DNA from: an uncultured Chloroflexia bacterium
Lineage (GTDB): Bacteria > Chloroflexota > Limnocylindria > Limnocylindrales > CSP1-4
Assembly: GCA_963697275.1 (NCBI GenBank)
Contig: CAVONF010000005.1
Coordinates: forward strand, 363,741 to 427,740
DNA: 64,000 nucleotides
Direction of reading: 5' to 3'
A model generated the notes under the pieces. It was not told the origin of the DNA, did not search any database, and saw only the letters and a list, made by a program, of their open reading frames with translations. Every line of letters begins with the position of its first letter. Positions within the stretch are counted from its first letter, which is position 1. Shown here piece by piece: positions 1-64,000 of the stretch. The translations under genes and the position numbers were made by a program.

Positions 1-110
1 TGCAGCGACGTCATGACGACTGCCGATGATGGGTGCGGCATAGATCGACCAGCATGGCCAGGATGAAGCCGTGGAGCACGAACGAGCGGTGCAGTGGACG
101 CTCTCGACGG
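1..110 (-). CDS. Sugar ABC transporter permease (MalG-like), 5' part only; runs off the window start
   Basis: Minus-strand translation gives '...AVVMTSLQ', resembling the N-terminal transmembrane region of a second inner-membrane permease downstream of the permease at 140..1040. Confidence 0.3.
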
Positions 111-139
111 TCCTGCTCGTTGACGGTCGACCCGGCGTG

Positions 140-1040
140 TCAGCCATACAGCCGCTCCGAGGCACGGCGACTGCCGGAAGTAGATGACGATCACGATGAT
201 GGCCAGGCCGAAGAGGGCGTCGCGATGGCCGCGCCGTAGCCGAACTGGTACTTGAAGAAGGTCTCCTAGTACATGAACATGGCCAGGTTGTCCGACGTGT
301 GGAAGGGCCCACCCTTGGTCAGGACGTAGACGATGTCGAAGCCCTTGAGCGTGTTGATGACCGCGAGCGAGATGACGACCACGTCGCCGGTCGCAGCAGG
401 GGCACGATGATGCGGCGGAACTGCTGCCAGGAGTTGGCGCCGTCGATCGCGGCTGCCTCGAGAAGCTCGCTCGGGCATCGTCGTCAGCGCCGCCAGGTAG
501 AGGATCAGGCTCAGCGCTGTCTGCTGCCAGCACCAGGCCACGATGACCGCGATCAGCGAGGTCTTGGGGTCACCCAGCCAGGCCCGCGTGAGGTCATCCA
601 GTCCGACGGCCTCGAGGACGGTGTTCAGGAGGCCCCAGTCGGGCTGGTAGATCCAGGTCCAGACCTGCCCGACGACGACCAGCGAGAGCGTGATGGGCAG
701 GTAGAAGGCTCGACTTGTAGAACCGACTGCCGCGCAGCGGTCGGTCCAGCAGGACGGCCAGCAGCAGGCCCAGGATCGTGGGCACCGTCACGGCGACGAT
801 GAGCCAGAGGGCGGTGTTCTCGGAAGGACCGATGAAGTAGCGGGTCGACGAGCAGCCCGGATGTAGTTGTCGAGGCCGATGGCGTCGGGTCCCGCAGGCC
901 GCTCCACTCGGCCAGTGCTGTAGACGACCGACTGCACCAGCGGCCAGAGCACGAAGATGGCGTAGAACGCCAAGTGGCCCGGCAGCCATCGAGATCAGCG
1001 CCAGACGGTTGGTGCGCATCAGGTTCGTGTCTCGGCTCAC
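140..1040 (-). pseudogene. Sugar ABC transporter permease (MalF/UgpA-like), interrupted by at least 3 frameshifts
   Basis: Pieces in three frames: 'MSRDTNLMRTNRLALI', 'AFYAIFVLWPLVQSVVYS...GLDNYIRA', 'LWLIVAVTVPTILGLLLAVLLDRPLRGSRFYKSSLL', '[30 protein letters not shown]', 'FKYQFGYGAAIAT'. This is the classic binding-protein-dependent permease signature. Confidence 0.6.
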
Positions 1041-1046
1041 TCGCTA

Positions 1047-2485
1047 GCACCGTCTCTGTCCTCCCAGTCGTCGATGGCAGCTCGGGACGAAGTGGCGACG
1101 CCGGCCGCGACTCCGGAGCCGGCATCGCGATCGATGGCTCGCCGTGGTCAGTCGGCGCTGGCCGCACGCGAGCCATCTGGTGACTGCTGCTCGAAGGCCG
1201 CCTTGATCGTCCGTCTCTGTCTCGGCCAGGAGGCCCGGGACGTCCTGGCGGATCGTTGACATGAACTCCTGGCGAACATGTTCAGGCCCGACCACGGAGG
1301 GCGCCGGCGGCGTGGCGAGGTCGTAGTTGAAGTTGAAGGATGGCGACGGCCGCGACCACATCGAGTGCCTTCTGGAGCACGTTGTCCAGCTGCGTCGTGT
1401 CGGCAGTGACGTTGGTGCGGCATGCGCCCTGGCCGATGGCCCAGGCTCGGTCTGCACCTCGGGCTTCGCCAGGAAGGCGAGCATTGCATGGCGCCATCGG
1501 GTTCTTGGCCGCGTCGGCGCGGTGAAGCCGTCGACCGGTCCCGACGACCGCATTGGGGACGCCCGTCGACGATCGGGAACTCGAAGAAGTCGTAGTCTTC
1601 ACCGTCGGACGGCGCCGAGTGCCATCGAGGTACCCGATGAACCAGGTGCCATGAGGTTCATGGCCGCCTCGCCGTTGACCAGCTGATCGGCAGCGTCCGT
1701 CCAGTCGTGGCGTTGACGTCGCGCCGTCAGCGAAACAGCCGCGTCGACGCGCTCCTTCCAGAGGGTCCATCGCTCGCACGACCTCCGGGTCGGTGTAGGC
1801 AGGCCTCGCCGGCCATCAGCTTGGCGCGGTACTCGGGACCCGCCGTGCGCAGCAGCAGGTAGTCGAACCAGAACTGCGCCGGCCAGCGGTTCGAGGCACC
1901 CAACGAGATGGGCAGATGCCGCTGCTCCTGAAGGTCCCGCAGGCGCGCCATGAGCTCGTCCCACGTCGTCGGGATGGCTCGACGCCGGCCGTCGTCGAGG
2001 ACCTTGGGGTTGTAGAACATGCCGGCGTGTGATAGCCGAACGGGACAGTGTACTTGGCGCCGTCGTAGGTGGACGGCCGCGTCGACCATGCCTGCCGGGA
2101 ATGCGCGTCGAGGTCGTTCTCTGCCCACATCTCGTCGATGGGCATGAGCGCCCCGTTCTCGACCTTGAAAGCGGCGCGGGCGCCGGCCCAGTCGGTCAGT
2201 GCGCATCAGGCGGATTGCCTGCCGGCGAGCTGGACGAGGATGGCCGGTCTTGTAGTTCTCGTGGTCGATCTCACCGAATGTTGACGGCGTAGCCCGTCTC
2301 GGCGGTGAACTCCTCGACGATCGACGCCAGCGCCGGCCTCGCCGAGCGTCCACCGAAGTAGTGCAGGATATCGACGCTGCTCTCTCGTCCTGGGCGACGA
2401 CCGCGGCAGGTGCCGCGCTCCCAGCCAGCGCCAGGCTCGCGGCGAGCACGAAGCCCCGGCGCCACACGCTTCCGGTTCTGGTCAT
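1047..2485 (-). pseudogene. Sugar ABC transporter substrate-binding protein, frameshifted (2 or more shifts)
   Basis: Signal peptide 'MTRTGSVWRRGFVLAASLALAGSAAPA'. Substrate-binding-protein motifs lie in other frames: 'DILHYFGGRSARPALASIVEEFTAETGYAVNI' and 'AGMFYNPKVLDDGRRRAIPTTWDELMARLRDLQEQRHLPISLGASNRWPAQFWFDYLLLRTAGPEYRAKLMAGE'. Confidence 0.6.
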
Positions 2486-2550
2486 CTCCAGTCCTCCTGT
2501 CCTCCGTGCGACGTCCGCCGATGGTCGGTCCGGATCGTCGGTCGAGTCCG

Positions 2551-4368
2551 TCAGGTGCGTTTCACTGCGTCACGTCTGACCGCTGCCACCTCCCTTTCGT
2601 ACCTGCCCCTGCGCTCCGGCAGCGAGGCCGGAACGGGAACGTCCCACCAGCCGCTCACGGGACCGGCGGATTCGGGGTACTCGCGCCGGACGGGCACGAC
2701 GATGACCGTCGGTCCTCCCTCCGCGAGCGCCCGACCGATGGCGGCCCGGAGCGCCTGCTCGTCGGTCGCCTCTGTGGCCTTGACGCCGAAGCCACGGGCG
2801 ACCGTGACCAGGTCCGGCGTGATGGAGGCGCCCCGCGGCGTGCGGAACTCGGCCGCGAAGCCGTGCTCCTCGCCGTAGACGTCCATCTGCAGATCGCGGA
2901 TGGATTGCCAGCCCGCGTTGTCGACCACGACGTAGACGACGTCGAGGCCGTACTGCGCGGCCATGGCCAGCTCCTGCACCGTCATCAGGAAGTCGCCGTC
3001 CCCAGCGAAGCCGAGCACCGGTCGATCCGGTGCGGCCAGCCGGGCGCCGATGGCGCCCGGGCACCGTGAAGCCCATGGTGCTGAAGCCGTTGGGCGAGAT
3101 GACCTGCGAGGCGTCGTTGACGGTGTACTCCTGCAGGAACTGCGCCTGCGAGTGGCCGGCGCCCGTGAGCACGATGGTGTCTTCCGGGACGGCGTCGTGG
3201 ACGATGTCCAGCACCGCGGAGATGCGCAGCGGCAGGGTGCGGTCGGTGCGGCCCGGCGCCAGCTTCGCGTTCCAGGGCACCACCAGCTCGGCGATGCGGC
3301 CCTCCCAGATCGCGCGTCGCGCCGCGTCGACCGGCTCGGATGCGATCTCCGCCCAGAGCGCTTCGCAGAAGGCCCTGGCGTCGGCCACCACGCCCAGCTC
3401 GACGGGGTAGTTCTTGCCGATCTCGTACTCGTCGATGTCCACCTGGTAGAGCTTCGTGGGCGGGATGGAGAAGCGTCACCCCGGGCACGTATGAGGAGGT
3501 CGCCTCGTCGGCGAAGCGGCAGCCGATGGCGAGGATGACATCCGCCTCGCGGCACAGCGCGTTGCCGGTGTCCGTGCCCTTGGAGCCCGGGTAGCGGCCG
3601 TACAGCGGATGGTCCTCCGGCAGCACGCCCTTGGCCTGGTAGGTGGCCACCACCGGCAGGCCCAGGTGCTCCGCGATCTGGCGGAACCGGGCGGAGGCGC
3701 CGCTCTGCACGACGCCTCCGCCGGCGAGGAGGACAGGACGTTCGGCATCAGCCAGCGCCGCCCGAATCTGGGAGACGGCCCCAGCCGCGGGTGCGGGTGG
3801 CTCGGGGAGTTCGACCGGCGCGAGCCTCGGGGACGTCGGCCGCGTCGGCCTGGACATCCATGGGCACCGAGATGAGCACGGGGCCCGGGCGACCGCCGGC
3901 CGCCAGCGCGTAGGCCTGCGGCAGGATGCGCGCCAGCTGGTCCACGCGCGTGACCTGCCACTGGCGCTTGGTGATGGGCTCGAATAGCGTGGTCAGGTCC
4001 GCCCAGGCCTTGCGGTCGACCTCCTGGAGCACACCGCGCCCGAACATGTAGGTGTGCACGTCGCCGGTGAAGACGAGCATGGACGAGGAGTCCACGTAGG
4101 CCGTGGCGATGCCCACCGCGGTGTTCACGGCTCCGGGACCGATGGAGGTCATGACCGCGAGCGGCTTGCGCGCGACCCGGAAGTAGGCATCGGCGAGATG
4201 CGCGGCCGACTGCTCGTGGCGGACCTGCAGGAAGGTGGGCGTATCCCGGCCTACGAAGGCATCCACCATCGGCAGGCTGCCGTGACCGGGGATGCCAGCG
4301 ACGTAGGGGACACCGTTGGCGGCGAGGTGATCGGCGATGACCTGTCCGCCCGTGCGCAGGTTGCTCAT
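2551..4368 (-). pseudogene. Thiamine-pyrophosphate-dependent enzyme (acetolactate-synthase-like large subunit family), 3 or more frameshifts
   Basis: N-terminal TPP domain 'MSNLRTGGQVIADHLAANGVPYVAGIPGHG...MTSIGPGAVNTAVGIATAYVDSSSMLVFTGDV'. Middle domain 'RPVLLAGGGVVQSGASARFRQIAEHLGLPVVATYQAKGV' is in a second frame. C-terminal TPP-binding 'VLGFAGDGDFLMTVQELAMAAQYGLDVVYVVVDNAGWQSI' is in a third frame. Confidence 0.65.
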
Positions 4369-5163
4369 GAGACCATCCTCGAGGCTGGACCACCCAACTC
4401 CCGGCTGACTGCGTGCCGCCGTGTCCACCACGATCGGCGCCAGGACTCGCAAGCGCTCGGTGTCCATGCGGTCGGCAGGAGCGGAGATGCCCAGCGAGGC
4501 GATGACGCCGCCGATCCCGAACACGGGGGCAGCGATGCAGCGCACACCGGGGTGGTACTCGCGATCGTCCACTGCGTAGCCGGTGACGCGGATCTGGGCC
4601 AGCTCCTTGTGGAGCGCCTCCGCGCTGGTCGTGGTGCGGGGGGTGAAGGCCTCGAAGTCCAGGTTCTTGATGAGGCTCTCCGAGGTGCCCCTGGGCAGGT
4701 TGGCGATGAGCGCCTTGCCCGTCGCCGTGCAGTGCAGGGGTCCCGACTGGCCGATGGCGGCGTTGGCGGACAGCAGCGTCGTGCCGTTGAGCGTTGACAC
4801 GTAGACGACGTGATCGCCGGCCAGCACCGCAAGGTGGGTGTTCTCGCCGGAGGCGGCCCACAGCGCCTTCAGATGCGGGGCCGCCACCACCGTGAGGTCC
4901 TTCGAATCGAGCACCGATCGCGCCAGCTCGACGACACGCACGGTGGCGCCGTAGCGGCGCGTGGAGGGATCCTGCTCCACGTAGCCGAGGCGAACGAGCG
5001 CTGCCAGCGTCCGGTGCGCGTTGGCCTTGTCCAGGCCCAGCTGCTCCGCGATGTCGGTGACTCCCAGGGGTCCGTGGGCGGACACGAGCAGCTCGAGCGT
5101 CCGCAATCCCGTTGCGAGCGCACCGCGCTGGACGGGGGCCGACGCCCCTCGCTGGCCACTCAT
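4369..5163 (-). CDS. IclR-family transcriptional regulator; no stop codon before the downstream TPP enzyme (in-frame fusion or lost stop)
   Basis: HTH 'LGVTDIAEQLGLDKANAHRTLAALVRLGYVEQD' plus an IclR effector domain, about 265 aa. The ORF then continues in frame into 'MSNLRTGG...' of the TPP enzyme. Confidence 0.75.
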
Positions 5164-5610
5164 GGCAACGCGATTGTCCGCCTTGCTACGATCTCGTCAA
5201 GGGAGTTTCAGCATGGACAACCGCCGTTGTGGTCAGCCGCGTGGCCGACGCGGCCGGGCGTGGCCCATCCGAGCCGGCCCCTCCTGGGGCTCGCTTCCGC
5301 CCCTGGTCGTACCCTCGCTTCCTCCCCCGGCCTTACCTCTGAGGTCAGCAGGTTCCGTCGGACGGATGCGCGGCGCCCTCGGGCGGCCGTCACTCACCTG
5401 AGCGGTGGCAAGCGGCTGTCGGGAGACCGCGGGGAGCACTCGGAAGCCCCGAGGACCTCGTCCCGACGGTCGACTGTGACCCCAGGTGCAGGATGCGACG
5501 CACGGGGGCACTCCAGCGCCAGAGACGCCGCGCCAGAGACGCCGCGCACAGACCCCATCGCCGTCGTCTTGTTCACAGCACCGTTACCGAGGCTGACGTA
5601 GCCTGCAAGG

Positions 5611-6408: not shown

Positions 6409-7173
6409 GCAACGAGCCCACGAGCAGCGAGGAGCAGTCGATGACCGAGGACATCGTCACCACGCCTGACCGACGTGTCGCCCTCATCACCGGTGCGACC
6501 GGAGGCCTGGGTCGCGTGCTGTCCGCAGACCTGGCCGCGGCCGGCTGGGACCTGGCGCTCATCGGGTCGAACGCCGATCGTCTCGACGCCCTCAAGACGG
6601 AGCTGGGGCTGCCCGCCGGGCGCGTCCTCGGCGTCGCCGTCGACCTGCGCGAGGCCGATGTGGCCATCGACGCCATCGAGGCGGTCTACCAGCACTTCGG
6701 CCGCGTCGATGCGCTGGCCCACCTGGTGGGCGGCTGGACCGGTGGCACACGCGTCGATCGACGCCACGGATGACCCCTACGACGCCATGCTCGACCAGCA
6801 CCTCTGGTCCACCCTGAACGTCACGCGAGCGCTGGTCCCGCGCATGGTCGCTGCGGGCCACGGCCGCATCGTGGCGGTGTCATCGCCGATGGCCGCGGCA
6901 CCGGACGCCGGCATGAGCGCCTACGCCGTGGGCAAGGCGGCCCAGGAGACGCTGCTGGCGGCACTTGCCCAGGAGCTCGTGGGCACCGGGGTGACGGCCA
7001 ACGTGGTGCGGGTCCGCGCCATCGATGCGGGCAGGGTCCGCGAGGCAGATCCGCACGGCAAGGGCGCCTCGATGACCACACCGGCGGAGATCTCGGCCGC
7101 GATCCGCTACCTCTTCAGCGACGAGGCGCGGGTCGTCAACGGCCAGCGCATCGGACTCCACAGCGGCATCTAG
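6405..7173 (+). CDS. SDR-family oxidoreductase, single frameshift near 6750; start overlaps the ribA stop (ATGA)
   Basis: 'RVALITGATGGLGRVLSADLAAAGWDLALIGSNADRLDAL' in one frame. 'RIVAVSSPMAAAPDAGMSAYAVGKAAQETLLAALAQELVGTGVTANVVRVRAID' (YxxxK) in the next. Confidence 0.7.
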
Positions 7174-12542: not shown

Positions 12543-13465
12543 CTACATCCGCCTGATCGAGCGGCCTCTCGCCCGCGGCCCATAGCGCGGCGGCACGATG
12601 CCCGACAGCTCCAGGATCCGTACCAGCCGGGCGCGCTGGCCCCGGTACGGTTCCAGCAGCTCCAGCATCCGCGCGTCATCGCCGCGCGGCTCGCCGGCCA
12701 GCGCCCAGCCGACCAGGTCCGGGGTGTGGAAGTCGCCGATGCTGACCGCGTCCGGATCGCCGAAGGCGGCGCGTGCCGTCTCGGCCGCCGTCCAGGGCCC
12801 CACTCCCGGGATCGTCTGCAGGCGCGCCAGGGCTGCCCCGGGCGCCAGCCTGACCGCTTCTTCCAGCCAGGCGGATCGCTGCAGCGGCGCGGATGAGCGT
12901 GACGGCGCGGCGCTGCTCGACGCCCAGTGGATGCAGCTCGTAAGTAGGGCAGCGCGGCGATGACCCCCGGCGCCGGGGGCAGATGCAGGCCGCCGGGACC
13001 CGGCGCCGGCTCACCGTACCGCAGGACCAACCCGCGCCAGGAGCGTTGTGCCTCCGGACCCGTCACCTTCTGCTCGATGATGGCCGGCACCAGCGAGCCC
13101 ATGACATCGTCACTGCGGCCGAAACGCAGACCCCGCAGCCGATCCGCCAGCTCGCGCAGCCGGCCGCGAGGCAGGTCCAGGGCGCCCGGCTCGTCCTCGG
13201 CACCAAGCAGGCGCGGCAACGCCGCGACGGCTCGCTCTGCACCGGCACCCCAGGCCACCGCCCGCCAGCCATCTCCGGCTCGCGAGAGAGACACGGTGGC
13301 CGGGCCTTCGGCCGTGCGCCACGCGCGCCAGACCGCGCCCCCTACGAAGCGGATGGTCGGATCCCGAGGGCCGTGCCGCAGTGGCCCCAGCGTCAGCACG
13401 GGGTCCACCTCGAAGCCCAGCTCGATGATGGTGTCGATCGCCGGCGCGGCCTCGGGCTCGCTCAC
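12543..13465 (-). CDS. alkA: DNA-3-methyladenine glycosylase II (AlkA-like, HhH-GPD), 2 frameshifts
   Basis: N-terminal domain 'MSEPEAAPAIDTIIELGFEVDP...SLVPAIIEQKVTGPEAQRSWRGLVLRYGEP'. The HhH-GPD part 'LHPLGVEQRRAVTLIRAA' and the C-terminus '...GDFHTPDLVGWALAGEP...LLEPYRGQRARLV' are in other frames. Confidence 0.6.
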
Positions 13466-15571: not shown

Positions 15572-17371
15572 GGTCGCAGGCTCCGCCAGTCGAAGGCCTC
15601 GACGCGGTTCGGGCCGGCCTTCATGGTGTCATAGCGGGTCTTGAGGACGCGGATGCGCGTGCCCCCCGGGTCCCGCGTGAAGAGCACCAGGTCGGTCAGG
15701 CCGTCGTAATCGACGTCAGCCGCCCCTAACCTTGTCTTCTCGACGAGGATGGGGGCGCGCCTGGGTGCGGTCCATACCGGGACACGCAGGAACCTGCCCC
15801 TGGGCTGACCCTCCAGCCGCTCGACCCTGGCCACGCCGCCGCTCCGGCTCACCATGCAGCAGGTCCTCCAGTCCGTCGCGGTTCGCGTCCGCGGGGATGG
15901 CCCTGACCTTGGCGGGATCCAGGGTCTGATCGTAGTAGGCGACCCGGAGCGCGGTCATGCGGTCGCTGCCAGGCGGCAACGGGCTCCTCGTGAGCGCCGT
16001 CTTGAACTTGACGCCACCACGTCCCGGATGCTGGCGCACGATGAGGTCCGCTCGGCCATCCCCGCTGACATCACCAGCCCAGGCCGCCGACCACGGTGCC
16101 CAGGTCGGTCGGACCGGACCACCAGCGCACCGGACGGCCGAACCCGTTGCCGACCTTCTTGCGGAGCACGACGAGCTGCGAAGTCCCTTCGGCGTCACCC
16201 CTGGCCAGGACGCCCACGTCGGGCCGGCCATCGGCGTGATAGTCCCCGACCATGAGCGTGGCGCCGCCGAGCGGCACGGTCAGGCTGCCGTCGAACCACA
16301 CCTGCTCGGCGCCGTAGCTCGAGCCGTCGCTGAGCGCGACCGTGATGCGACCGTTCCTGCGGGCCGGTCTGCGTGAGCCACACCAGGTCATCCTTGCCGT
16401 CGCTGTTGACATCGCCGGAGTGGAAGCCGACGAGCCCGTCGCTGGCGATCCTGACGCCGGCCCTTGAGCTGGGATCGGCTGACCCGTTGCTCAGCGACCA
16501 CACGTGGGCGACCCGCTGCCCATCGCCGTCGAGGACCATCGCTGCGGCGTCGCCGTGCCGGGAGCCGACCACGTCGTGGCGGCCCGTGGTCACGATCTCC
16601 AGGTTGGGGCTGAGATACCGGCGCAGGATCTCGCGGTAGGTGAGGCCGTCGCGGCCGCAGGCCTTGGTGCTCTGGTGGTACAGCTTGAAGCCGTTGGCAT
16701 CGGCACCACACGTGGTGGCCGAGCCGGAGCGATAGCCGGTCAGGAAGAAGCGGCTGCGCTGGCTGGCGCGGCTGTACTTGCGGATCGTCACGTCCCAGGT
16801 CGCCGCGATGGCCTTCATGATCTTGCGGCCCGGGCCCCTTGACCTGGCCGACGCCGTACTTCTCCGGGTAGTAGTACTGGTCGACCGTCGAATTCGACGA
16901 CGTCGTAGCAGACGATCTCGCCGCCGGGTCGCGGCTCGCCCTCGACTTCCTGGCCCTCGGGTGGTGGATCCGGGTCGGGCAGCTGCACCGTCTTGCCGCG
17001 CGGCCGGATGACCTGGTACCAGGCGTACTGCCGGGTCGCGATGGCCCCGACCTTGAGCGTCTCGAGTGGGTAGTGCTCCGGCCATTCGACAGCCATCACC
17101 GTGGCCACGTAGTCGCGGAAGTCCACCTCCTGGACCGTGCCCACGACCTCCGGGGGCACCTCGTCGCGCTCGGTGCGCAGGACGCGGATGGTGGGCGGCG
17201 GCACGTACTCGCTGGTCCACGGGGTGCAGGCAGCGCCGGCGGCGCTGAAGGCAGGAGGGGTCGAAGCCTCCGCGGGCCGCCTGGCGGCCTCCGCGGGCGA
17301 CGCGGACAGGGTCACGACGAACAGGCTCGCCATCACGGCTGCGAGCCCGGACGCCGACTGGGGGCGGCGCA
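15565..17371 (-). pseudogene. Secreted SpoIID/LytB-domain protein with FG-GAP/VCBS repeats, 4 or more frameshifts
   Basis: Signal peptide 'MRRPQSASGLAAVMASLFVVTLSASPAEA'. SpoIID motifs 'VDFRDYVATVMAVEWPEHYPLETLKVGAIATRQYAWY' and 'STKACGRDGLTYREILRRYLSPNLEI'. Repeats 'GDVNSDGKDDLV', 'GDYHADGRPDVGV', 'DVSGDGRADLIV' and 'DVDYDGLTDLVLF' are spread over four frames. Confidence 0.6.
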
Positions 17372-17474: not shown

Positions 17475-18828
17475 ATGCGCATCGCCATCGTCGGCGCCGG
17501 CTACGTCGGCCTCGTCACCGCGGCCTGCCTGGCCCACCTCGGCCACGAGGTCGTCTGCCTCGATGTCGATGCCGCGCGCATCGGACGCCTCCTCCGCGGT
17601 GACCTGCCGGTCCATGAGCCCGGGCTCCAGGAGCTCGTGACCGAGGGCCTGGACGATGGCCGGCTCCGCTTCGCGGCCGAGGTCGGGGCCATCGGCTGAC
17701 AGTGAGCTGGTCATCGTCTGCGTGGGCACGCTGGATGCGGCCGAGGAGTGGGATGGCGATGTCGTCCGCGCCGCCGTCCGTGACATCGCCGCCCGTCCGG
17801 ACCTGCCGCGCGCCATCGTCATCCGCAGCACGCTGCTGCCGGGCACGGCGGTCGACATCGCCGCGGAGGTCCGTGCCCTCGATCCCGCGGTGCGTCTCGC
17901 CCACAACCCCGAGTTCACGCGCGAGGCCAGCGCGGTCGCGGATTTCCTGGCGCCCGACCGCGTCGTCATCGGCGTGGAAGATGTGGATGACGCGGGGAGC
18001 CAGGCCCTGGCCGAGGCTCTGCGCCGCGTCTACGCGCCGCTGCAGACTCCGGTGGTGGTGACCGATCTGACCAGCGCCGAGACCATCAAGGTCGCCTCCA
18101 ACGTCTTCCTGGCCGCCAAGATCACCTTCGCCAACGAGATCAGCCGCCTGGCTGCGGCCACCGGCGCGGATGCTGCGGCCGTCGTCGACGGCATGGGCCT
18201 CGACAAGCGTATCGGGCGCGCCTTCCTGTCACCCGGTCCCGGCTTCGGCGGCTCCTGCTTCCCCAGCCAGGCGCGGGCGCTGCCGCAGCTGGCCGCCAGC
18301 TACGGCGTGCGGACGCCGCTCATGGACGCCATCTGGCCCTCGAACGTGAGTCAGGCGGAGTGGCTCATCGACGGCCTCGAGCGGGCCGCCGGGCGCGCGG
18401 TGGGCGGCATGCGCGTGGCGCTCCTGGGCCTGACCTTCAAGGCCGGCACGGACGACCTGCGCGAATCGCCGGCCCTGCGGCTGGGACAGGCGCTGCTGGC
18501 ACGCGGCGTGACCGTGGTCGCCTTCGATCCGCTGGCCCTGGAGGCCGGGGCGGCGGCGCTGCGCCGGGCCGTCCCTGCAGCTGGGGCCGCGGTGCTCACG
18601 GCGCCCGACGAGGCCAGCGCCTGCGCTGGCTCCGATGCCGTGGTCGTCGCGACCGAGTGGCCGCAGTTCGCACAGCTCGACTGGGCGGCCATCGCACCGA
18701 CGATGAGGGGCCGGGTCATCATCGACGGGCGCCGCATCGTCGATGTGGCTGGCGCCATGGCTGCCGGATCGCGTGTCGTGGCGCTCGGCGTCGAGGCCAG
18801 GGGAGCGGCGCTGCAGCCCGTCGAGTGA
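17475..18828 (+). CDS. ugd: UDP-glucose/GDP-mannose 6-dehydrogenase, single frameshift near 17690
   Basis: 'MRIAIVGAGYVGLVTAACLAHLGHEVVCLDVD', then in the next frame '...GPGFGGSCFPSQARAL...LGLTFKAGTDDLRESPA'. Confidence 0.75.
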
Positions 18829-23528: not shown

Positions 23529-23876
23529 TCAGCGCACGCGGCCGATACGCCCCAGCGGCCAGTAGCGGAACCAGGGCTGGCCCTCGAGCTTGGCCGGATC
23601 CACGGGGCCGAAGACACGCGAGTCGGTCGAGGCCTCCGGCGCGTCACCACCGATGAGCAGCCAGCCCCTGGGATCGACGTCCGTAACGCGCTTGACGAGA
23701 AGACGCTGCGAATCGCGCGGATCCGGCACCAGCACCAGCTCGCCGGCGCGCGGAGAGCGTCGCCGAAAGGCCTCCGGGTCAGCCAGGAGCCAGTCCCCGG
23801 GCTGGAGGCCGGGGCGCATGCTGCCGCCTTCGACAGCGACGCGGGCTCTCCAGGAGCGGAGCAGGCGGCGACGCAC
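23529..23876 (-). CDS. sodX: S26-type signal-peptidase-like protease, probable Ni-SOD maturation protease SodX
   Basis: 'MRPGLQPGDWLLADP...LVKRVTDVD...GDAPEASTDSRVFGPV'. About 115 aa, immediately downstream of sodN. Confidence 0.7.
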   Translation of the reverse strand: MRRRLLRSWRARVAVEGGSMRPGLQPGDWLLADPEAFRRRSPRAGELVLVPDPRDSQRLLVKRVTDVDPRGWLLIGGDAPEASTDSRVFGPVDPAKLEGQPWFRYWPLGRIGRVR

Positions 23877-23947
23877 GTTGGGCCGGGATCAGCGGGCTCG
23901 CCCGGACCGATATCCCCGACGAGCCCAGATGGGTCCGACGGCTGTCG

Positions 23948-24365: not shown

Positions 24366-24562
24366 CATGATCCACTCCTTCTTGAGGTTGGTGGCGCCGC
24401 AACCCATATGCCTTGGCGCGGTGCCTGGGGTCACGGACCGATTCTGCCACGCATGCCGACGAAACCGGCTTGACGACGTGTCCTCGTGGTGCTACCTTCC
24501 CATAAACCCTATAGACTCCATGGACAATATAGGATAACTCGGGAATAGCAGGGGGCGGTCTG

Positions 24563-29482: not shown

Positions 29483-32216
<2,734 letters not shown>

Positions 32217-49768: not shown

Positions 49769-52087
49769 TCAGCGCGTGATGAGGATGGCGTCGATGGCCG
49801 ACTGGCGCGTCAGCCCCTGGATCTGGAGGGTGTGCGCCCCGGCACCGAGGCGGCGGCTGAAGACGATGCGTCGCTGCAGGCCCTTGGGGTGCTCCAGGCT
49901 GACGTCACGCCAGGGGCCGCCGTCGAGGCGCACGCGCAGCGCACCCCGCCCGGGGCCGATGGGCGCCACCACGGCGACCGAGTCGCCCCGGAACCTGGTC
50001 GCGATGCTCTTCGTGGCCGCCGCGGCCTGCAGCAGCGAGCCGCCGAAGGCCGACTTGGCTGACTTGGTCTTCCAGCCGCTGGCGGGCCGCTGCCAGTCCT
50101 GGGAAGCGGAGTCGCGGACGATCAGCCCCAGCGCCAGCGTGGGGCTGACGGAGCTGTTGCCCAGGCTGTCCGTGGAACGGACTCGGAAGCGCTCGCTGCG
50201 GCCCGGCTTCAGGGTGACCTTGGCTCCGCTGCTCCCGCCACGGACCGTGCGCCAGGGGCTACGCCCGATCTTGCGCTGCAGCACGGATGTCTTGACGGTG
50301 CTCAAGCGGTCGGTGACGCTCCACTTCAGGATGGTCATGGCGGCGCCGTTGGCAGCCATGGCCACGTTGCTGTCGCGGATGCGTGACGACAGGTCCCGGA
50401 CCTTGGGTCCGGTGCGATCCAACACGAGCTCCAGCACGCGACTGGCAGCAGGGCCGCCCGGAGATCGGGCCACTACGCTGAGCTGCCGCCGGCCGTCACG
50501 CCCGCCTCGTTCGAGCCGGAGGTTGACGCGTGCGTCCAGCCCGGCGAGTCCGGCAAGGCTGGCGCCAGGCCGATCGAAGGTGGCCTTGCCGACCTTGGGA
50601 CGCAGTCCGGCCACGCTGAGCTGGACGTCGCCGCCAAAGCCGCCACCGCGCTGCACGTCCACGCGCGCCTGGCGCCTGGTGCTTGTGCCGGAAACCTTGA
50701 AGGACTTGGCCGAGAGCCACACTCGCAGGTCCGGCGGTCCGGTCAGGAAGGACACATCGAGCAGGCGCTTGGGATCATCGCCGTCGGCGACACCCGACCA
50801 GGTCGGGTCCGTCCTGATCTCCCAGTCCATCCGCCCGGCGGCCTGGATCAGGTCTCGCATCTGGTTCGGCGGGGTGCCCGGATGGGCCGCCAGGTAGCGT
50901 GCGGCTGCGCCCGCGACATGGGGAGCGGCCATCGAGGTCCCCGTCATCGTCCTGGTGACGTCCCCGCTGTCCGAGGGTCGCAGCGATTCCACGCAGGTGC
51001 CCGGCGCCACGATGTCGACGTCGGGCCCGTAGTTGCTGTACGACGCCCAGGTGTCGTCGCGTTCACCCGAGCAATCGTCGGAGGCGTCGCCCCAGCCCCC
51101 GCCGTCGAGGTCCGTGATGGCACCGACCGTGATGACCTGGTCATAGCCGGCTGGCACGACCGAGTTGGCGTCCGTGGCGCCGTTGCCGGCCGCGGCCACG
51201 ATGGTGATGCCTGCCGCGTGTGCCGCACAGACGGCCGCGTGGATGGGATCGGGGTCGCCCGGGAGGCACTCTTCGAGATACGAGGTGCGAGACCCCTCGA
51301 TGCTCATGTTGATGACCTCGATGGGCTGCGTCCCGGGTGGGGCCAGGCCTGGCAGGTGGGTGGATGTCACCCAGTCCAGGCCGCACAGCACGGTGGCTTC
51401 GTCGCCCCAGCCACCCTCATCGAAGACGCGCACCGCCCAGAGGCGGGCGCCCGGTGCCACGCCGACCACGCCGACGCCATTGCCGTCCCGCGCACCGATG
51501 GTGCCGGCCACGTGCGTGCCATGCCAGACGGAGTAGAGGTCCTGCCACTGGTCGAGCGGCCGGCCGTCGGCGGCGCAGTTGATGCCTCCGGCGATGTTCA
51601 GCTCGTTGCCGCCGACCGGCCCGATGCCGGTGTCGATGATGGCGACGTCCACGTCGACGTCTGGCGTGGGGCTGCTGATGGGGGCCGCCTTGACGCGCCT
51701 GACACCGGCCGGCACGATCTCCCCGGCGATGCGGAAGCGGCGCGCCGGTCGCACCTCGGCGACCTCGAAGTCGCGCCTGAGCTTCGCCGCCTGTGCCGGA
51801 GTGAGCCGCGCCGAGAACCCCGAGATGGCGGTCGTGTAGCGGTGGCGTGCCTTGACGTCGTACTCGCGGACGATGCGCCTGGTGACCGCCTTGGTGACGG
51901 CGACGCGCTGGCGCATGCGCTGACGACCGGCGCGGTTGCTCAGCCGGATGGTCTCGCCGCTATCGCCCGCCGCGAGGGTGACGATGTAGTTGCGCGCCTT
52001 GCGCTCCGGTGCCGCCAGCAGGGCACCGGGCAGCAGCACGCCGAGCATGGCGACACCGAGGAACACACCGAGGGACGTTCGCGTCAC
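49769..52087 (-). CDS. Secreted S8 subtilisin-like serine protease with I9 pro-domain and C-terminal beta-rich (Ig/PKD-like) domains
   Basis: Signal peptide 'VTRTSLGVFLGVAMLGVLLPGALLAAPE'. Catalytic triad 'VAIIDTG', 'HGTHVAG', 'GTSMAAPHVAG'. Confidence 0.75.
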   Translation of the reverse strand: MTRTSLGVFLGVAMLGVLLPGALLAAPERKARNYIVTLAAGDSGETIRLSNRAGRQRMRQRVAVTKAVTRRIVREYDVKARHRYTTAISGFSARLTPAQAAKLRRDFEVAEVRPARRFRIAGEIVPAGVRRVKAAPISSPTPDVDVDVAIIDTGIGPVGGNELNIAGGINCAADGRPLDQWQDLYSVWHGTHVAGTIGARDGNGVGVVGVAPGARLWAVRVFDEGGWGDEATVLCGLDWVTSTHLPGLAPPGTQPIEVINMSIEGSRTSYLEECLPGDPDPIHAAVCAAHAAGITIVAAAGNGATDANSVVPAGYDQVITVGAITDLDGGGWGDASDDCSGERDDTWASYSNYGPDVDIVAPGTCVESLRPSDSGDVTRTMTGTSMAAPHVAGAAARYLAAHPGTPPNQMRDLIQAAGRMDWEIRTDPTWSGVADGDDPKRLLDVSFLTGPPDLRVWLSAKSFKVSGTSTRRQARVDVQRGGGFGGDVQLSVAGLRPKVGKATFDRPGASLAGLAGLDARVNLRLERGGRDGRRQLSVVARSPGGPAASRVLELVLDRTGPKVRDLSSRIRDSNVAMAANGAAMTILKWSVTDRLSTVKTSVLQRKIGRSPWRTVRGGSSGAKVTLKPGRSERFRVRSTDSLGNSSVSPTLALGLIVRDSASQDWQRPASGWKTKSAKSAFGGSLLQAAAATKSIATRFRGDSVAVVAPIGPGRGALRVRLDGGPWRDVSLEHPKGLQRRIVFSRRLGAGAHTLQIQGLTRQSAIDAILITR

Positions 52088-52475
52088 CTGCCCGAGGGTC
52101 ACGATCACTCCGACTACGCACTGGACACCGATAGGGTAGCCCACCGGTGTAGATGGCCCCGGAAGCCGCGGTGAAGCCGCGGTGAAGATGCGGTAACGCC
52201 GGAGAAGCGATCGAGGGGCCTCATCGCGGCTTCCGAGCATCGCCGCTCCGAATGACCCCTCGAACGTGAGCGCATGCTGCAGAGTGCGGCTCCACGCCTG
52301 TACCACCCGTTGGTCACGGGATGGTGGCTCTGACGGTGGCTCTGACGGTGGGTGCCACCCTGCCCGGTGCCTCACCACCCACCCGCGGCTCGTCCGGACG
52401 GTGCATCCTTAGGCGGCCAGGGGGCAGTTCGTCCGGGGCCGTGGCAAGGTCGGTCACAGGGAGGTATACACGCAC

Positions 52476-53763: not shown

Positions 53764-53807
53764 CCCGGTGGCAAGGTCGGGAGGAGGGGGCCGACCTTGC
53801 CACCGGG
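53764..53807 (+). terminator. Strong hairpin (16-bp perfect stem) after the ICMT gene; putative factor-independent terminator between convergent genes
   Basis: CCGGTGGCAAGGTCGG-gaggaggggg-CCGACCTTGCCACCGG seen directly. Confidence 0.45.
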
Positions 53808-54036
53808 CAACGAAGCCGCGTCACCGATCCACCCCCGTTCGTGAGGGAGAGGGGTCCTCACGAGCGGGGCCGTGCAGTAGAACGGTGTCGCTATGTGTAG
53901 TTCTGGGCCGAATCTGTCCTTCGCGACGGGGGCCGCACATCACTCCTTGGTACGGGCGCCCCACGTACGCGCTTCCCAGTCCAGGTCTGGAGCGGTGCGG
54001 TCCGCTGCGGTCGCACTGACGGCTACCAGCCGACGG

Positions 54037-57449: not shown

Positions 57450-58188
57450 CTATCCTTTGCGGGCGGTGACGTTGAGGCGAACATAGTCGATGGCGAGGAC
57501 GCCGATGCGGTCGACCATGGCATCCGCCAGGCGGTGCAGCTCGTCGTCGGGCAGGCCGGTGGCCGGGCGAAGGTAGGGCGTCACGATGTAGTCGATCATG
57601 TCCTCGCGCGTCTCGAAGGTGATGGTCCGCGGCTCAAGCCAGGCCGCGGCGTCGACGAACCCGGTGGCCTCCAGGCGAGCCAGGGTCTCCGTTCGGGCCG
57701 GCCATGTGGAAGTGCTGAGCGGTCTCCACGCCCTGGTCGCGCGCGGCGCTGATGATGTCCGCCGCGTTGCCCTCGCCACCGCACTGGAACGAGAGCTGCC
57801 CGCCTGGCCGCAGGGCACCCGCGAGGCCCGCGAAGAGGGCATCGTGATCGAGGATCCAGTGGAAGGTGGCCGTGGACATGATGGCATCGACGGGTCCATC
57901 GATGGGCCATGGGGGCCTGCCCAGGTCGGCCTGGAGACAGGTCACGCGGTCCGCGAACCGCTCGAGGCGACGAGCGGCTTCGGCGAGCATGGAGGCCGAG
58001 CCGTCGAGGGCGATGACTCGACCACGCGGCAGGCGCTCGAGCAGCTGCTCGGTGAGGCGTCCTGAGCCGCAGCCTGCGTCGAGGACGCGCTCGTCCCCGG
58101 TCAGGACGAGGCGATCAAGGGCCGCTGCGCCCATGGCCGCGTGGGGGGCCGAGATGCGGTCATAGGCATCGCCGCGCCAGTCGCCCAT
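57450..58188 (-). CDS. Class I SAM-dependent methyltransferase (trans-aconitate methyltransferase Tam-like), single frameshift near 57690
   Basis: 'RVLDAGCGSGRLTEQLLERLPRGRVIALDGSASML'. The Tam-like C-terminus is in a shifted frame. Confidence 0.65.
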
Positions 58189-58301: not shown

Positions 58302-60067
58302 ATGCCCGACCCCGAGCAGCTCATCGAGACTCATCCGCGCCAGTGTCATCGGCGACGACGAAGCCTTCGCCGGCCCCTTCGGCATCCGTCGCGTCACCTA
58401 TGCCGACTACACCGCCTCCGGGCGCAACCTGACCTTCATCGAGGACTACATCCGCGAGCAGGTCATGCCGCTCTACGCCAACACGCATACCGAATCGTCG
58501 GGCACCGGCCTGCAGACGACCGCGCTTCCGTGAAGATGCCCGGGACATCATCCGCGCCGCCCTCAACGCACCCCGCGAGGACTACGCGGTCATCTTCTGC
58601 GGGTCGGGCTCCACGGCCGCCGTGGACAAGCTCGTCGGCATCCTCAACCTGCGCATCCCGGCCGACCTGGACCGTCGCTACGGCCTCAGCCGCCACATCC
58701 CGGCCCGGGACCGCCCCGTCGTCTTCATCGGCCCCTACGAGCACCATTCGAACGAACTGCCGTGGCGTGAGTCGATCGCCGAGGTCATCACCATCCGCGA
58801 AGACCGCGACGGGCACATCGACCTGGCGCACCTGGCCGAGGAGCTCGACCGCCATGCCGACCGCCCCCTCCGGATCGGCTCCTTCTCGGCGGCCTCCAAC
58901 GTGACCGGTATCCATTCGGACACGCGCGCCATCTCCGTGCTGCTCCATCGGCACGGTGCGCTGGCGTTCTGGGACTACGGCGCCGCGGCCCCGTACCTGC
59001 AGATGAACATGCGGCCGCACCGTCCCGCCCCCGACGACGACGAGCGCGACCAGGACGGCGACGCCGAGCTGGACACCAAGGACGCCGTCTTCATCTCGCC
59101 CCACAAGTTCATCGGTGGCCCCGGCACGCCCGGGCTGCTCGTGGTCCGGCGCGGACTGCTGACCAACTCCGTGCCGGCCGTGCCCGGCGGGGGCACCGTC
59201 GCCTACGTCAACGCCCTCGAGCACGTCTACCTGGACGACCCCGAGCATCGCGAGGAAGGCGGCACCCCGGCCATCATCGAATCGATCCGGGCCGGGCTCG
59301 TCTTCCAGCTCAAGGAGCAGGTCGGAGCGGAGGCCATCCGAGAGAACGAGGAGTCCTTCATCGAGCGTGCGCTCGATCGCTGGTCAGCGGTCCCCGGCCT
59401 CGAGATCCTCGGCGACCTGGGCGCGCGCCGGCTCTCCATCGTCAGCTTCGTCATCCGCCACGGCGACCGCTACCTGCACCACAACTACGTGGTGGCGCTG
59501 CTCAACGACCTCTTCGGCATCCAGTCGCGCGGCGGCTGCTCCTGCGCCGGTCCCTACGGCCACCGCCTGCTGGGCATCGACATCGAGACCTCCCACGAGT
59601 TCGAGCGCGAGATCACCCGCGGCTGCGAGGGCATCAAGCCCGGCTGGGTCCGCGTCAACTTCAACTACTTCATCAGCGAGACGGTCTTCCGCTTCATCCT
59701 CGACGCGGTCGAGCTGGTCGCCCGTGACGGCTGGCGCCTGCTGCCGCAGTACCGCTTCGAGCCTGCCAGCGGCCTGTGGCGCCACGTCGGCGGCCAGGTG
59801 GAGGCGCCGCTCTCGCTGCACGACATCCGCTACACGGCGAGCGGCATGGAGTTCGCGACCCACCACCACCATGAGCCCGAATCACGGCTGGCCGACTACC
59901 TGGCCGAGGCGCGGGCACTGCTGGCCCACCCGCCCATCCCGACCGTCGCGCCGCAGCGGTCCGCCGACCTCGACGTGGGCGAGGATTTCGAGGGTCTGCG
60001 CTGGTTCCTCATGCCCGACGAGGCAGCCGCGGAGCTGGCCGCCGCGACACCGACGGTCCGGTCTTGA
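58302..60067 (+). CDS. Aminotransferase class V-fold PLP-dependent protein (cysteine-desulfurase/selenocysteine-lyase-like), 2 frameshifts in the N-terminal 250 nt
   Basis: 'RRVTYADYTASGR...MPLYANTHTESSGTGLQTTA', 'DYAVIFCGSGSTAAVDKL', '...ISPHKFIGGPGTPG'. 'MPDPEQLIET' is in yet another frame. Confidence 0.6.
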
Positions 60068-60118: not shown

Positions 60119-60578
60119 CTACTCGACCGGCCAGTAGACCTCCGTCTGCGTGCGTGCCGGATCGGGCTCCTGGTCGGGATCGGTAAGGTAGACCTCCCAC
60201 ATGACCGCCGCAGGCGTGCGGCCCTGGGCCTCGATCCAGGCCCGCAGGGCGTCATAGGTCTCGCCCAGCGAGTCATACGAGCCGATGTGCAGGGCCACGG
60301 CGGCGTCGCAGCCGCCCAGCTCGGAGGCCTTCACCTCGTCATCGCCGCTGAAGGGTGTCTCCACCGTGATGCCGCACTCGAAGTCGACCACGTCATCGTC
60401 GAAGCTGAAGTAGCGGGCGAAGACTGCTCCGGCGGGCACGCCCCCGGAGCGCGTCACTGCCTCGAAGACCCTGCCGAAGGCCTCGCCCATGACTCGTGCT
60501 GATCTCGTTGACGTCGCAGCGCAGGTGGATGACCGCCGTGTCCTGGCGGGGTACGAAGCGGATCTCGTAGCCGTTCAT
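60119..60578 (-). CDS. GyrI-like (AraC-effector-binding-fold) small-molecule-binding protein, single frameshift near 60490
   Basis: 'MNGYEIRFVPRQDTAVIHLRCDV' then, in the next frame, 'MGEAFGRVFEAV...WEVYLTDPDQEPDPARTQTEVYWPVE'. Paralog of 62572..63054. Confidence 0.6.
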
Positions 60579-60600
60579 CGGGTCGATCCTCCGGATCTGT

Positions 60601-61699: not shown

Positions 61700-62500
61700 C
61701 TACTCGATCTCGAACTGGATGAAGACGTTGACGCTGAGCTCGACCTCGCCCGGCAGGACCGGGGTGGGGGCGGCGCTGGCGGCCATGTCGAAGGCCATCT
61801 CGGCGCGGTCCATGTAGATGGGCTGCGGCTGCGCCCCGCCCGACTCGCTGATGCTGATGATGCCGATGATGGTGACACCGGCCTCGGCGGCGAGCTGGTC
61901 GGCCTTGGCGCGAGCATCGGCGACGGCCGCGCTGCGAGCTTCGGTCTCGGCAGCCGTGGGATCCTCCACGCGGAAGCTGATGCCGTTGATGTTGGTGGCA
62001 CCGGCGGCGGTGGCGGCATCCACGACGTCACCGACGGCCTCGATGTCACGGACCGTGACACGGACCTGGTTGCTGGCCTCCCAGCCTTCGATCTCGGGCG
62101 GGTTCTCGTCCCAGTCGTAGAGCGGGTTGAGGCTAAGCGTGGTGGTCTGGATGTCGGCCTCGGCGACGCCGGCCTCCAGGAGCGCCTTGATGACGGCATC
62201 CATGGTGGTGGCGGCCTCGCCGGCCGCGGCCTTGGCGTCCTCACCCTGCTTGGTCACGCCGAGGTTGACATCGGCGACGTCCGGCTCGGCCTTGACGCGG
62301 CCGGTGCCGTTGACGCTGATGGAGCGGACAGTGTCGCCGTCGTCGGACTGGGCCTGGGCGGCGCCCACGGCCGGGCCTGCGAGTGCGGCGGCCAGGAGCC
62401 CGATGGCCAGCCCGCCGGCGAGCCAGCGGATCCCGGGACGGTTCGGGGATGAGGGTGGTGGTCACTGTGGTGGTTCCTCCGTGTGGTCGTTCGCGTGTGG
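61700..62500 (-). CDS. SIMPL-domain (DUF541) secreted protein, YggE-like; frameshift in the signal-peptide n-region at a CCCGGG run
   Basis: 'IRWLAGGLAIGLLAAALAGPAVGAAQA' signal peptide, then 'ISVNGTGRVKAEPDVADVNLGV...'. No in-frame start unless shifted to GTG 'MTTTLIPEPSR'. Confidence 0.6.
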
Positions 62501-62571
62501 TTCCTGCGCCAGCGCATGCCGGCACCGCACCCCGTATCGACGCCGCACGCCCGGGTGCGGTTCCCTGGGCG

Positions 62572-63054
62572 TCAGGGCCTCCGCAGCGGGTAGATGACCT
62601 CGGTGATCCAGCGGGAAGGATCGGGCTCCCGGGATGGGTCGGTCAGGTAGATCTCCCAGGGACCACCGCTGGCCACGTGGCTGGTACTCGCGATCCAGGC
62701 CTCGATGGCTGCGTAGGTCGCGGGCAAGCCTTCGTAGGGACCGACATGGACGGCGATGGCCGCCGGGCCGGCCGGCAGTTGGCCGGGCTTGACCTCGCCG
62801 TCGGGCTGGATCGGTGCCGCCACGGGCATGCCGGCCTCGACGTCCACCGTGGCACCGAAGCTGTGATATCGCGCGAATGGTGCGCCGGCCGCAGACACAC
62901 CCTGCTTGCTGACGGCCTGGCTGACGGCCTGGAAGATGCGTCCGATGGTCACGGGGATGTCGTCCCTTCGGACGGTCTCGCGGACGGTCGCGGTGTTCTG
63001 CGCCCTGAGCACTCGGAGCTCGATCTTGGAGGAAGGGCCCCTCGGTTCTGCCAT
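62572..63054 (-). CDS. GyrI-like small-molecule-binding protein (intact paralog)
   Basis: 'SKIELRVLRAQNTATVRETV...WEIYLTDPSREPDPSRWITEVIYPLR'. 160 aa. Confidence 0.65.
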   Translation of the reverse strand: MAEPRGPSSKIELRVLRAQNTATVRETVRRDDIPVTIGRIFQAVSQAVSKQGVSAAGAPFARYHSFGATVDVEAGMPVAAPIQPDGEVKPGQLPAGPAAIAVHVGPYEGLPATYAAIEAWIASTSHVASGGPWEIYLTDPSREPDPSRWITEVIYPLRRP

Positions 63055-63640
63055 GCCGGGTACCTCGCTGGTGTGATGGTGCTTGGCGTGCTGGTGCTGG
63101 CGTGCTGGCTCGGCTCTGGCTGGATGCTAGCGCCTTGCGTCCGGCTTTGACAGGCCGGATCCCTGCGCTGCGGTGGACGGATGCGGCTCTTCTCGGCCAT
63201 CGGCCGAGCCCTCACGCCCTCCGCGGTCAGCGCCGCCCGGGCCGGCCTTTCATCGTTGCCCGACGCCAGCTCGAGTCCGAGGATTCGACGCTCCCCGCCC
63301 GTCGCCCCCGGTGGCCACGAGGGCCGCCATGTGCACGACCCGGCCGCCATCACGGACGTTGACGTATGGGGCATCGAGCCAGAGGTACGGATAGGACGTA
63401 GGCCTCCTGGACCACCGCGATCAGGGCCCGCTCGGCCCGCCGGCGCGGCTCGAGCAGGCTGGGGAAGTAGCTGCCGCCATGGACACGGGGAATGGACAGC
63501 CCGATGGTGCCGACGCGGGTGTCCCAGCGGCGCTCGGTAGCCGTTGCGCTAGGTGCCGCGATGTTCGGGGTCGCGCACACCATGGAGCACGCCGGTGACC
63601 TAGGCCTCCATCACCGCCGCGGCGAGCAACTGCACGCCCC
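62949..63640 (-). mobile_element. Degenerate IS256-family (Mutator-type) transposase remnant: frameshifts plus an internal deletion of about 50 codons
   Basis: 'WDTRVGTIGLSIPRVHGGSYFPSLLEPRRRAERALIAVVQEAYV', 'YLWLDAPYVNVRDGGRVVHMAALVATG' and 'ERRILGLELASGNDE' sit in three frames. They match conserved IS256/IS1081 transposase blocks. No inverted repeats were identified. Confidence 0.7.
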
Positions 63641-63770
63641 GGTGCAGGCCGTACCGCGGGGTAACCCCGGGAACACCTTCTGATGCGATGGACAAGGCGA
63701 GGCCCCCACCCCAGTCTCGTCGCCGCGAGGCGCGAGGGAACAGGAGTGGGGGCGAACTGTGTGGTTTGCG

Positions 63771-64000
63771 CTACTCGGCGAAGTCGCGCGACCAGAGGTT
63801 TTCGAGATCGGCGACGTTTTCCTGGGTCGCGACACGACCGGCGACCAGGCAGCCGTCTTCGCCACACCCGGGATCTTCACCGCTCATGATTGCGGTCAGG
63901 ACGCGCACGGCCTCCTCTGCATGAGCGAAGGCGTCGTACGTGGTCGTGACGTCGACGTAGCCGCCTTCCATGGCTTCCAGCGCCTCGGGGAACAGGTCCT
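63771..64000 (-). CDS. 3' end of an unidentified gene running off the window
   Basis: An ORF ending '...ENVADLENLWSRDFAE*' continues upstream beyond the window end. Family not recognised. Confidence 0.3.
   Translation of the reverse strand, partial: DLFPEALEAMEGGYVDVTTTYDAFAHAEEAVRVLTAIMSGEDPGCGEDGCLVAGRVATQENVADLENLWSRDFAE

Follow-up and report, generated by a model that had tools for sequence, protein, structure and literature searches.

Genomes rich in pseudogenes are well known from host-restricted bacteria such as Mycobacterium leprae, Sodalis glossinidius and Rickettsia. Frameshifts that arise naturally in bacteria are deletion-biased, come mostly from slippage in runs, and are soon joined by substitutions and stop codons. 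Reading frames may also be broken in the assembly itself, and below ~40x coverage a consensus is expected to contain insertions and deletions (indels) by which genes are fragmented (PMC9262707). Nanopore-only metagenome assemblies of Danish soils and sediments, made with Flye and Medaka, are held at ENA and include many metagenome-assembled genomes of poorly known lineages (PMC12313526); the contig described here may belong to that project. In this study, we analyzed the frame-broken genes in a stretch of 64,000 nucleotides (the window) from an uncultured Chloroflexia bacterium (Limnocylindria; Limnocylindrales; CSP1-4), which corresponds to positions 363,741 to 427,740 of the forward strand of contig CAVONF010000005.1 (GenBank assembly GCA_963697275.1). 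The window has 70% G+C and ~64 genes, the proteins closest to its own are named Candidatus Limnocylindrales or Chloroflexota by their sources, and Rfam and tRNA scans of the window gave no match. We hold with high confidence that the breaks are uncorrected consensus or assembly errors and not the marks of decaying genes.

The six frames of the window were parsed with a seven-state Viterbi path, whose codon-usage model was trained on clearly intact genes. Pfam profile scans were run on the in-frame pieces, and intact orthologs from relatives were searched against the window with tblastn. Many same-strand frame changes of the Viterbi path fell within genes and not at gene boundaries, and ~23 of the ~64 genes were frame-broken, which bears out a preliminary description, made from the sequence alone, that had put the share at about one third. 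Several Pfam domains were cut across frames, including TPP_enzyme_M (profile positions 2-95 and 102-137), adh_short (1-87 and 93-186), UDPG_MGDP_dh_N (1-70 and 75-181), Bac_luciferase (15-167 and 135-314), and ABC_tran (1-59 and 52-125), which is followed by TOBE in a third frame. The orthologs from relatives gave high-scoring segment pairs (HSPs) in two to five window frames per broken gene. All 19 genes named as broken in that description were confirmed by the Viterbi path, Pfam and tblastn, the SIMPL gene by frame reading only, and the C-terminus of the IclR gene, the C-terminus of the Rieske gene, the start of permease 2 and an IS256/Mutator transposase remnant were found broken in addition. 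Three open reading frames (ORFs) are false fusions, namely IclR-TPP_N at 3751-5196 (-), Rieske-VanZ at 18950-19927 (-) and sbp-cysT at 24563-26479 (+). They exist because an extra base just before a stop codon shifts one gene into the reading frame of the gene downstream of it, and they would pass as novel domain architectures.

The reference loci came from several assemblies. L081 (ENA ERZ25039597 contig_15967, 322 kb) is collinear with 38-62 kb of the window and intact, and L082 and L083 are loci of a 95-kb sister contig (ENA ERZ25039600 contig_94358, a name in the style of Flye), which is collinear with ~0-32 kb. Nine apparent short-read contigs (L084, Logan L086, JGI L087-L091, L168 and L169) cover ~0-24 kb, the Na/Ca exchanger and cysD; the label "short-read" was taken from the source collections and, for L084 (GCA_035283665.1), from a MEGAHIT-style name, an identical protein being also present on a MEGAHIT-style k141_ contig. 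Wherever these nine relatives cover a gene that is broken in the window, they have it as one full-length ORF. Their protein identity to the window is 77-96%, they are intact at all covered sites, and a same-strain assembly is not among them. The SpoIID/FG-GAP orthologs are intact in L082 (571 aa), L084 (582 aa) and L168 (589 aa), and those of L082 and L084 match the window in five frames. Rieske and VanZ are two separate genes in L082, L084 and L168. A comparison with orthologous loci, which the preliminary description had proposed as a check, thus shows the breaks to be absent from the orthologs at the covered sites in relatives. Among 80 cysN loci there were no usable orthologs of the sulfate transporter genes, so that the evidence for the events in sbp and cysA comes from Pfam and the reading frames; the Logan contig L167 ends ~100 nt before the nearer cysA site.

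Outside bases 1-2500, which are treated separately below and are left out of the statistics on isolated events, we found 29 isolated frame-breaking events. All 29 were single-base insertions (+1) and none was a deletion, with a binomial p of ~2e-9 against equal odds. The insertion calls were made from DNA gaps against orthologous loci, and from the direction of the frame change for sbp, the two cysA events, the methyltransferase and SIMPL. When we checked every same-strand Viterbi transition, the deletion-type transitions were all ordinary gene boundaries. Breaks were placed by a single-base-deletion scan against ortholog proteins, which located 25 events within a few bases.

Deletion of one base repaired the gene in all 28 events tested. 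The remaining one, in SIMPL, was assigned by frame reading only, where the signal peptide and SIMPL domain lie in the +1 frame relative to a GTG start with a GGAGGA Shine-Dalgarno sequence. When bases 3058, 3474 and 3819 were removed from the TPP enzyme gene, a protein of 603 aa was obtained with 92.4% identity to L084 and no gaps; its identity to JGI L090 was 94%, and it is the best-conserved gene of its neighbourhood. Ten further genes became stop-free ORFs after one-base deletion per event, and their domains matched full-length and unbroken. The corrected P-type ATPase has 924 aa with all five Pfam domains, the corrected class-V aminotransferase has 620 aa and equals its L081 ortholog in length, and the corrected SpoIID/FG-GAP protein matches SpoIID at positions 6-91 of 97. 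The methyltransferase pieces carry Methyltransf_25 and a C-terminal extension, and the corrected ORF has 289 aa. At sbp, an extra base near 25555 had already been described from the letters, and deletion of one base indeed gives a 357-aa Sbp with the canonical C-terminus GGWAEARPRFFDPETGLVAEIF. In the 18 hit genes outside bases 1-2500, no nonsense codons, truncations or larger deletions were found. The events and other features are listed in the following table.

Table. Frame-breaking events and related features of the window (positions count from the first base of the window; a single letter in square brackets is the extra base)
Feature	Position	Strand	Evidence
Dense error zone: permease 2 start, permease 1 (~142-989), sugar-binding protein SBP (~1184-2490)	1-2500	-	~60 small indels
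+1 insertion, TPP enzyme, TPP_C region	3055-3062	-	single-base gap vs L083, L084, L087, L090; frame change
+1 insertion, TPP enzyme	3473-3474	-	GCCCGGGGTGAC[G]CTTCTCCATCCC vs L090, L083; flanks identical; inserted base unlike both neighbours
+1 insertion, TPP enzyme	3818-3823	-	DNA gap and deletion scan
+1 insertion near IclR stop, fuses IclR-TPP_N	4410-4411	-	gap vs L083, L084, L087; IclR and TPP_N Pfam in one ORF
+1 insertion, SDR gene	6755-6757	+	adh_short split; L086 SDR matches two frames; corrected adh_short 1-187 unbroken
+1 insertion, alkA-like HhH-GPD gene	12881	-	ortholog frames, DNA gap, deletion scan
+1 insertion, alkA-like gene	12939-12944	-	ortholog frames, DNA gap, deletion scan
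Five +1 insertions, SpoIID/FG-GAP, near 15857, 16090, 16360, 16843, 16893	15856-16894	-	DNA gaps
+1 insertion, ugd	17693-17701	+	UDPG_MGDP_dh_N split; gaps vs L084, L168; corrected 1-181, 155 bits
+1 insertion before Rieske stop, fuses Rieske-VanZ	19455-19459	-	GGAGATC[G]GCCCTGCC vs L084
+1 insertion, luciferase-like monooxygenase 1, C-terminal part	21947-21948	+	ortholog frames, deletion scan, DNA gap
+1 insertion, sodN leader	24350-24352	-	L082 sodN residues 7-138 in one frame, first six codons in another
+1 insertion near sbp end, fuses sbp-cysT in frame	25554-25570	+	frame path; one-base deletion repairs
+1 insertion, cysA (approximate position)	27543-27571	+	ABC_tran split; corrected 1-136 unbroken, 124 bits
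+1 insertion, cysA (approximate position)	27780-27793	+	frame path, Pfam, repair
+1 insertion, P-type ATPase	30960-30961	+	gap vs L082, deletion scan
+1 insertion, P-type ATPase	31129-31133	+	gap vs L082, deletion scan, repair
Two extra bases, conserved intergenic element upstream of cysD	34740-34744	+	93% local identity to JGI L168
+1 insertion, glgP, C-terminal ~70 codons	46194-46195	-	ortholog frames, DNA gap, deletion scan
+1 insertion, luciferase-like monooxygenase 2	56188	-	GAAGAGCT[C]GCTGCATG vs L081; corrected Bac_luciferase 15-314, 224 bits
+1 insertion, methyltransferase (approximate position, no ortholog reference)	57680-57700	-	frame path
+1 insertion, class-V aminotransferase	58328-58329	+	CATCGAG[A]CTCATCC vs L081; deletion scan
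+1 insertion, class-V aminotransferase	58520-58522	+	ortholog frames, DNA gap, deletion scan
+1 insertion, GyrI-like gene	60491-60492	-	ortholog frames, DNA gap, deletion scan
+1 insertion, D-lactate dehydrogenase (D-LDH) gene	61395	-	ortholog frames, DNA gap, deletion scan
Probable +1 insertion, SIMPL signal-peptide region	62400-62470	-	frame reading only, no ortholog across site
IS256/Mutator-family transposase remnant, three successive frames, truncated	63253-63700	-	Transposase_mut 65-115 and 151-190 on different pieces

We then measured selection on the broken genes as (p1+p2)/2p3, where p1 to p3 are the divergences from the reference loci at the three codon positions. The values were 0.17-0.23 for the TPP enzyme, 0.23-0.34 for alkA, 0.24 for each of the SDR gene, luciferase-like monooxygenase 2 and the aminotransferase, 0.26 for glgP, 0.28 for D-LDH, 0.42 for ugd and 0.49 for FG-GAP. 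The broken genes therefore span 0.17-0.49 except the GyrI-like gene (0.68), and the intact neighbours span 0.14-0.52. Genes broken by isolated events show no relaxation of selection, and their codon-position divergence is as in intact neighbours. A comparison of nonsynonymous and synonymous change (dN/dS) in the broken genes had also been proposed earlier; run as codon-position ratios, it places them mostly within the range of the intact neighbours.

These results bear on whether the genes could be genuine, very recent pseudogenes of a lineage under relaxed selection, for instance through host restriction or a bottleneck. The events do cluster by gene, the window holds a transposase remnant, and a related contig also has broken TPP, SBP and permease genes, all of which speak for this reading. 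However, relaxation is what the codon positions do not indicate, the hit genes carry none of the nonsense codons, truncations or larger deletions of decay, and an insertion-only set in which most inserted bases do not duplicate a neighbour is at odds with deletion-biased bacterial mutation. The related contigs, moreover, were assembled from environmental metagenomes (JGI, Logan and ENA), and those from apparent short-read assemblies are intact. We consider recent pseudogene formation very unlikely.

The sequence context of the events was examined for the 25 that were precisely placed. In 15 of them, the inserted base is unlike both of its neighbours, which is unlike slippage mutations. Only four can touch a run of three identical bases, where the background is 11% of positions, and none touches a run of four or more, though the window has 462 such runs (379, 78 and 5 of four, five and six bases, respectively). 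The earlier statement that breaks fall in homopolymer runs is not supported by these counts. Miscalled homopolymer lengths, as in 454, Ion Torrent or early Nanopore data, would nevertheless account for a few events that can be placed in runs of three (CCCGGG at 3055-3062, GGG at 19455-57, CCC at 31130 and GGG at 16360) and for some deletions in bases 1-2500 that shorten GGG to GG. Set against the lack of any event at the longer runs and the prevalence of non-neighbour bases, this explanation is highly improbable for the set as a whole. Since the events are not tied to homopolymers, 454- or Ion-type error is unlikely, and with it the 454-type source considered in the preliminary description; 454 data also do not fit contigs that are hundreds of kb long and named in the Flye style. 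Uncorrected long-read consensus is then the only plausible error source left. We also considered that a strain polymorphism had been written with both alleles kept, which is not supported, as a synonymous third-position doublet is possible in only ~9-12 of 24 events, which is about chance.

The same site contexts speak to a further possibility, that the frameshifts are real but that programmed ribosomal frameshifting or transcriptional slippage restores function, so that the genes would still be expressed, as in some endosymbionts. In favour of this, coding sequence is fully conserved to either side of every break. The sites, however, share no slippery heptamer or poly-A/T tract and are heterogeneous in context, the orthologs of relatives are unbroken at the same positions, and the sister contig breaks at other sites, leaving rescue by recoding with next to no probability.

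The rate of the 28 positioned events was 0.46 per kb. When the events were counted in 5-kb bins, the ratio of variance to mean was 2.5 (p = 0.003), indicating that they are clustered, and event-free stretches of 15.1 kb and 10.0 kb were observed (p = 0.011 for the longest). A uniform Poisson model is rejected by these clustering statistics, so the roughly Poisson spread reported earlier does not hold, all the more with ~60 indels crowded into bases 1-2500. FG-GAP received five events, the TPP enzyme three, and alkA, cysA, the ATPase and the aminotransferase two each. The sulfate operon has breaks in sbp and cysA and none in cysT and cysW between them; such breakage of housekeeping-type genes within an otherwise intact operon again argues against pseudogenes. 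A break in glgP lies beside an intact glgA. Essential-looking genes had been noted as intact. The clean block at 31-56 kb also holds dispensable-looking GNAT, DUF885, S8 peptidase and LysM genes, however, and such clean blocks explain the pattern, in which intactness tracks position on the contig and not essentiality.

The dense zone at bases 1-2500 differs from the remainder of the window in that insertions and deletions are both present, roughly at 2:1, together with one in-frame stop (FMY*ETF). Compared with JGI L087, SBP has 29 insertions and 17 deletions, and permease 1 has 8 insertions and 4 deletions, all with lengths that are not multiples of three; in a control comparison of L087 with L090, at equal divergence, there were no frame-breaking gaps. 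The nucleotide identity of SBP to its orthologs is 75.9%, and that among intact orthologs is 75.4-77.3%. When the indels were projected out, amino-acid identity to the orthologs was 70% for SBP and 84% for permease 1 (67% and 83%, respectively, between intact orthologs), and the in-frame stops numbered zero in SBP and one in permease 1. Because 46 frameshifts in SBP are not accompanied by extra substitutions, which is impossible at natural indel-to-substitution ratios, a real evolutionary origin is not plausible here. The zone looks like a consensus made from very little or mixed read support.

The sister contig shows the same kind of damage at different sites. L082 and L083 have their own +1 insertions relative to L084 or the window, and those of L083 lie in the TPP enzyme (15670 and 15834), in SBP (16587) and in a small ORF (4610). 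The P-type ATPase of L082 likewise has its own +1 insertion; a frameshift inherited by the window and L082 from a common ancestor was rejected, as the L082 break lies ~190-350 nt upstream of the two in the window. Three transporter genes are shredded in L082/L083, with 15+10, 10+4 and 9+1 frame-breaking gaps, and the flanking genes are clean. The private insertions and the shredded transporters indicate that the error mode goes with the type of assembly and not with phylogeny. The alternative that the extra bases are real would need a recent burst of non-templated +1 insertion mutagenesis in a free-living Limnocylindria population, through an insertion-prone polymerase or an intercalating agent for example, too recent for other decay to have followed, and a related population would have undergone it independently; we regard this as extremely unlikely.

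Some further features of the sister loci were noted. Bases 1-2500 of the window and 16500-19800 of L083 hold the same sugar ABC-transporter genes and are the worst-quality stretch of both contigs, which suggests that this locus is strain-variable or confounded by paralogs. At 4862-5943 of L082 (1250-2331 of L083), the annotation of the ugd locus gives two hypothetical ORFs (217 and 126 aa) in antisense orientation, which match the ugd region of the window on the opposite strand; ugd in L082 is probably too frame-broken for the gene caller. In the other ENA contig, an apparent sharing of the glgP C-terminus between the window and L081 was rejected, as the similarity in the same-frame HSP is not real beyond VPLWY and the protein truly continues in the next frame.

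Based on the insertion-only spectrum, the one-base repairs, the unrelaxed selection, the intact relatives and the sister contig, we favour assembly indel error over decay, as the preliminary description had done. The contig would most probably come from a long-read-only metagenome assembly with uncorrected single-base consensus errors. Over most of the window, sporadic and clustered extra bases would each shift the frame of an otherwise intact gene under purifying selection, and bases 1-2500 would be of read-like quality, with small indels at ~2-4% and a wrong base now and then. The output of gene callers would then contain split genes, truncated genes and the false IclR-TPP, Rieske-VanZ and sbp-cysT fusions. 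The organism very probably has working copies of all the broken genes.

Here, we need to consider several points that weigh against assembly error. First, the clustering of events, with two to five breaks in several genes, is also expected of real dead genes; in our reading it may reflect low or strain-mixed read support. Second, the sequencing platform was deduced from the sister contigs and the contig names. Third, an insertion-only, non-homopolymer spectrum differs from the textbook Nanopore profile, in which homopolymer deletions prevail. Fourth, the closest apparent short-read relatives, at 90-96% protein identity, are not the same population. Finally, the shredding of the same three transporter genes in two independent contigs could hint at a locus-specific biological cause.

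Several other loci of the window deserve mention. The pair of extra bases upstream of cysD implies that insertions are not confined to coding DNA. The surrounding element at 34729-34885 has ~93% identity to JGI L168 (13550-13700), above that of the flanking genes, and no Rfam match; it may serve to regulate the sulfate-assimilation operon. Between a PEMT-like gene and DUF427, 53800-53850 has 90% local identity to L081 (~15610) with a one-base difference. At 23533-24400 (-), an S26 signal-peptidase-like gene comes after sodN (nickel superoxide dismutase); the two make up the usual sodN-sodX maturation pair, which is kept in L082, L168 and L169. The sbp-cysTWA block (24.5-28.3 kb), which lies between sodN and the Na/Ca exchanger in the window, is absent from L082, L168 and L169, and its presence is a gene-content difference within the lineage. 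The S8 peptidase at 49769-52378 (-) has 869 aa from its first start, its L081 ortholog has 777 aa, and similarity begins from 52102, suggesting that the N-terminal ~90 codons are probably not translated. The transposase remnant, which lies immediately upstream of the GyrI-like gene, appears to be cut short after ~200 codons and may be a true relic to which insertion errors were added.

The finding counts as quality control and not as biology. All calls of pseudogenes, truncations, split genes and fusions in this contig, such as a two-part P-type ATPase or a three-part cysA, are unreliable and are best set aside until it is polished, and the same probably applies to the rest of the genome bin and to sister contigs such as ERZ25039600 contig_94358. 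Chimeric and truncated sequences are carried over into protein databases that draw on such contigs. Those who tune long-read polishers might make use of a signature that is insertion-only and non-homopolymer.

When the window is set beside the known systems, it shares with host-restricted genomes a large share of disrupted frames among intact genes. Those genomes, however, combine frameshifts with stops and deletions, deletional bias, dN/dS approaching 1 and loss of synteny, none of which is seen here. With 454 and Ion Torrent errors it shares frame changes of plus or minus one in an assembly, but those errors are strictly tied to homopolymer length, and the events here show no enrichment at runs of three or more and are absent at four or more. 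The broken frames are real in the deposited sequence and very probably are not a biological feature. In the published description of long-read-only consensus indels, those in homopolymers are stressed, whereas the isolated events here, on a platform that we infer, are exclusively insertions and mostly outside homopolymers. In other respects the window resembles such assemblies: single-base indels fragment the calls of conserved genes, a problem that the IDEEL test measures and that has been discussed for Nanopore metagenome-assembled genomes (PMC9262707, PMC12313526), tens of errors per 100 kb occur in contigs that run to hundreds of kb and bear names in the style of Flye, and the errors are absent from apparent short-read relatives and worse in particular stretches.

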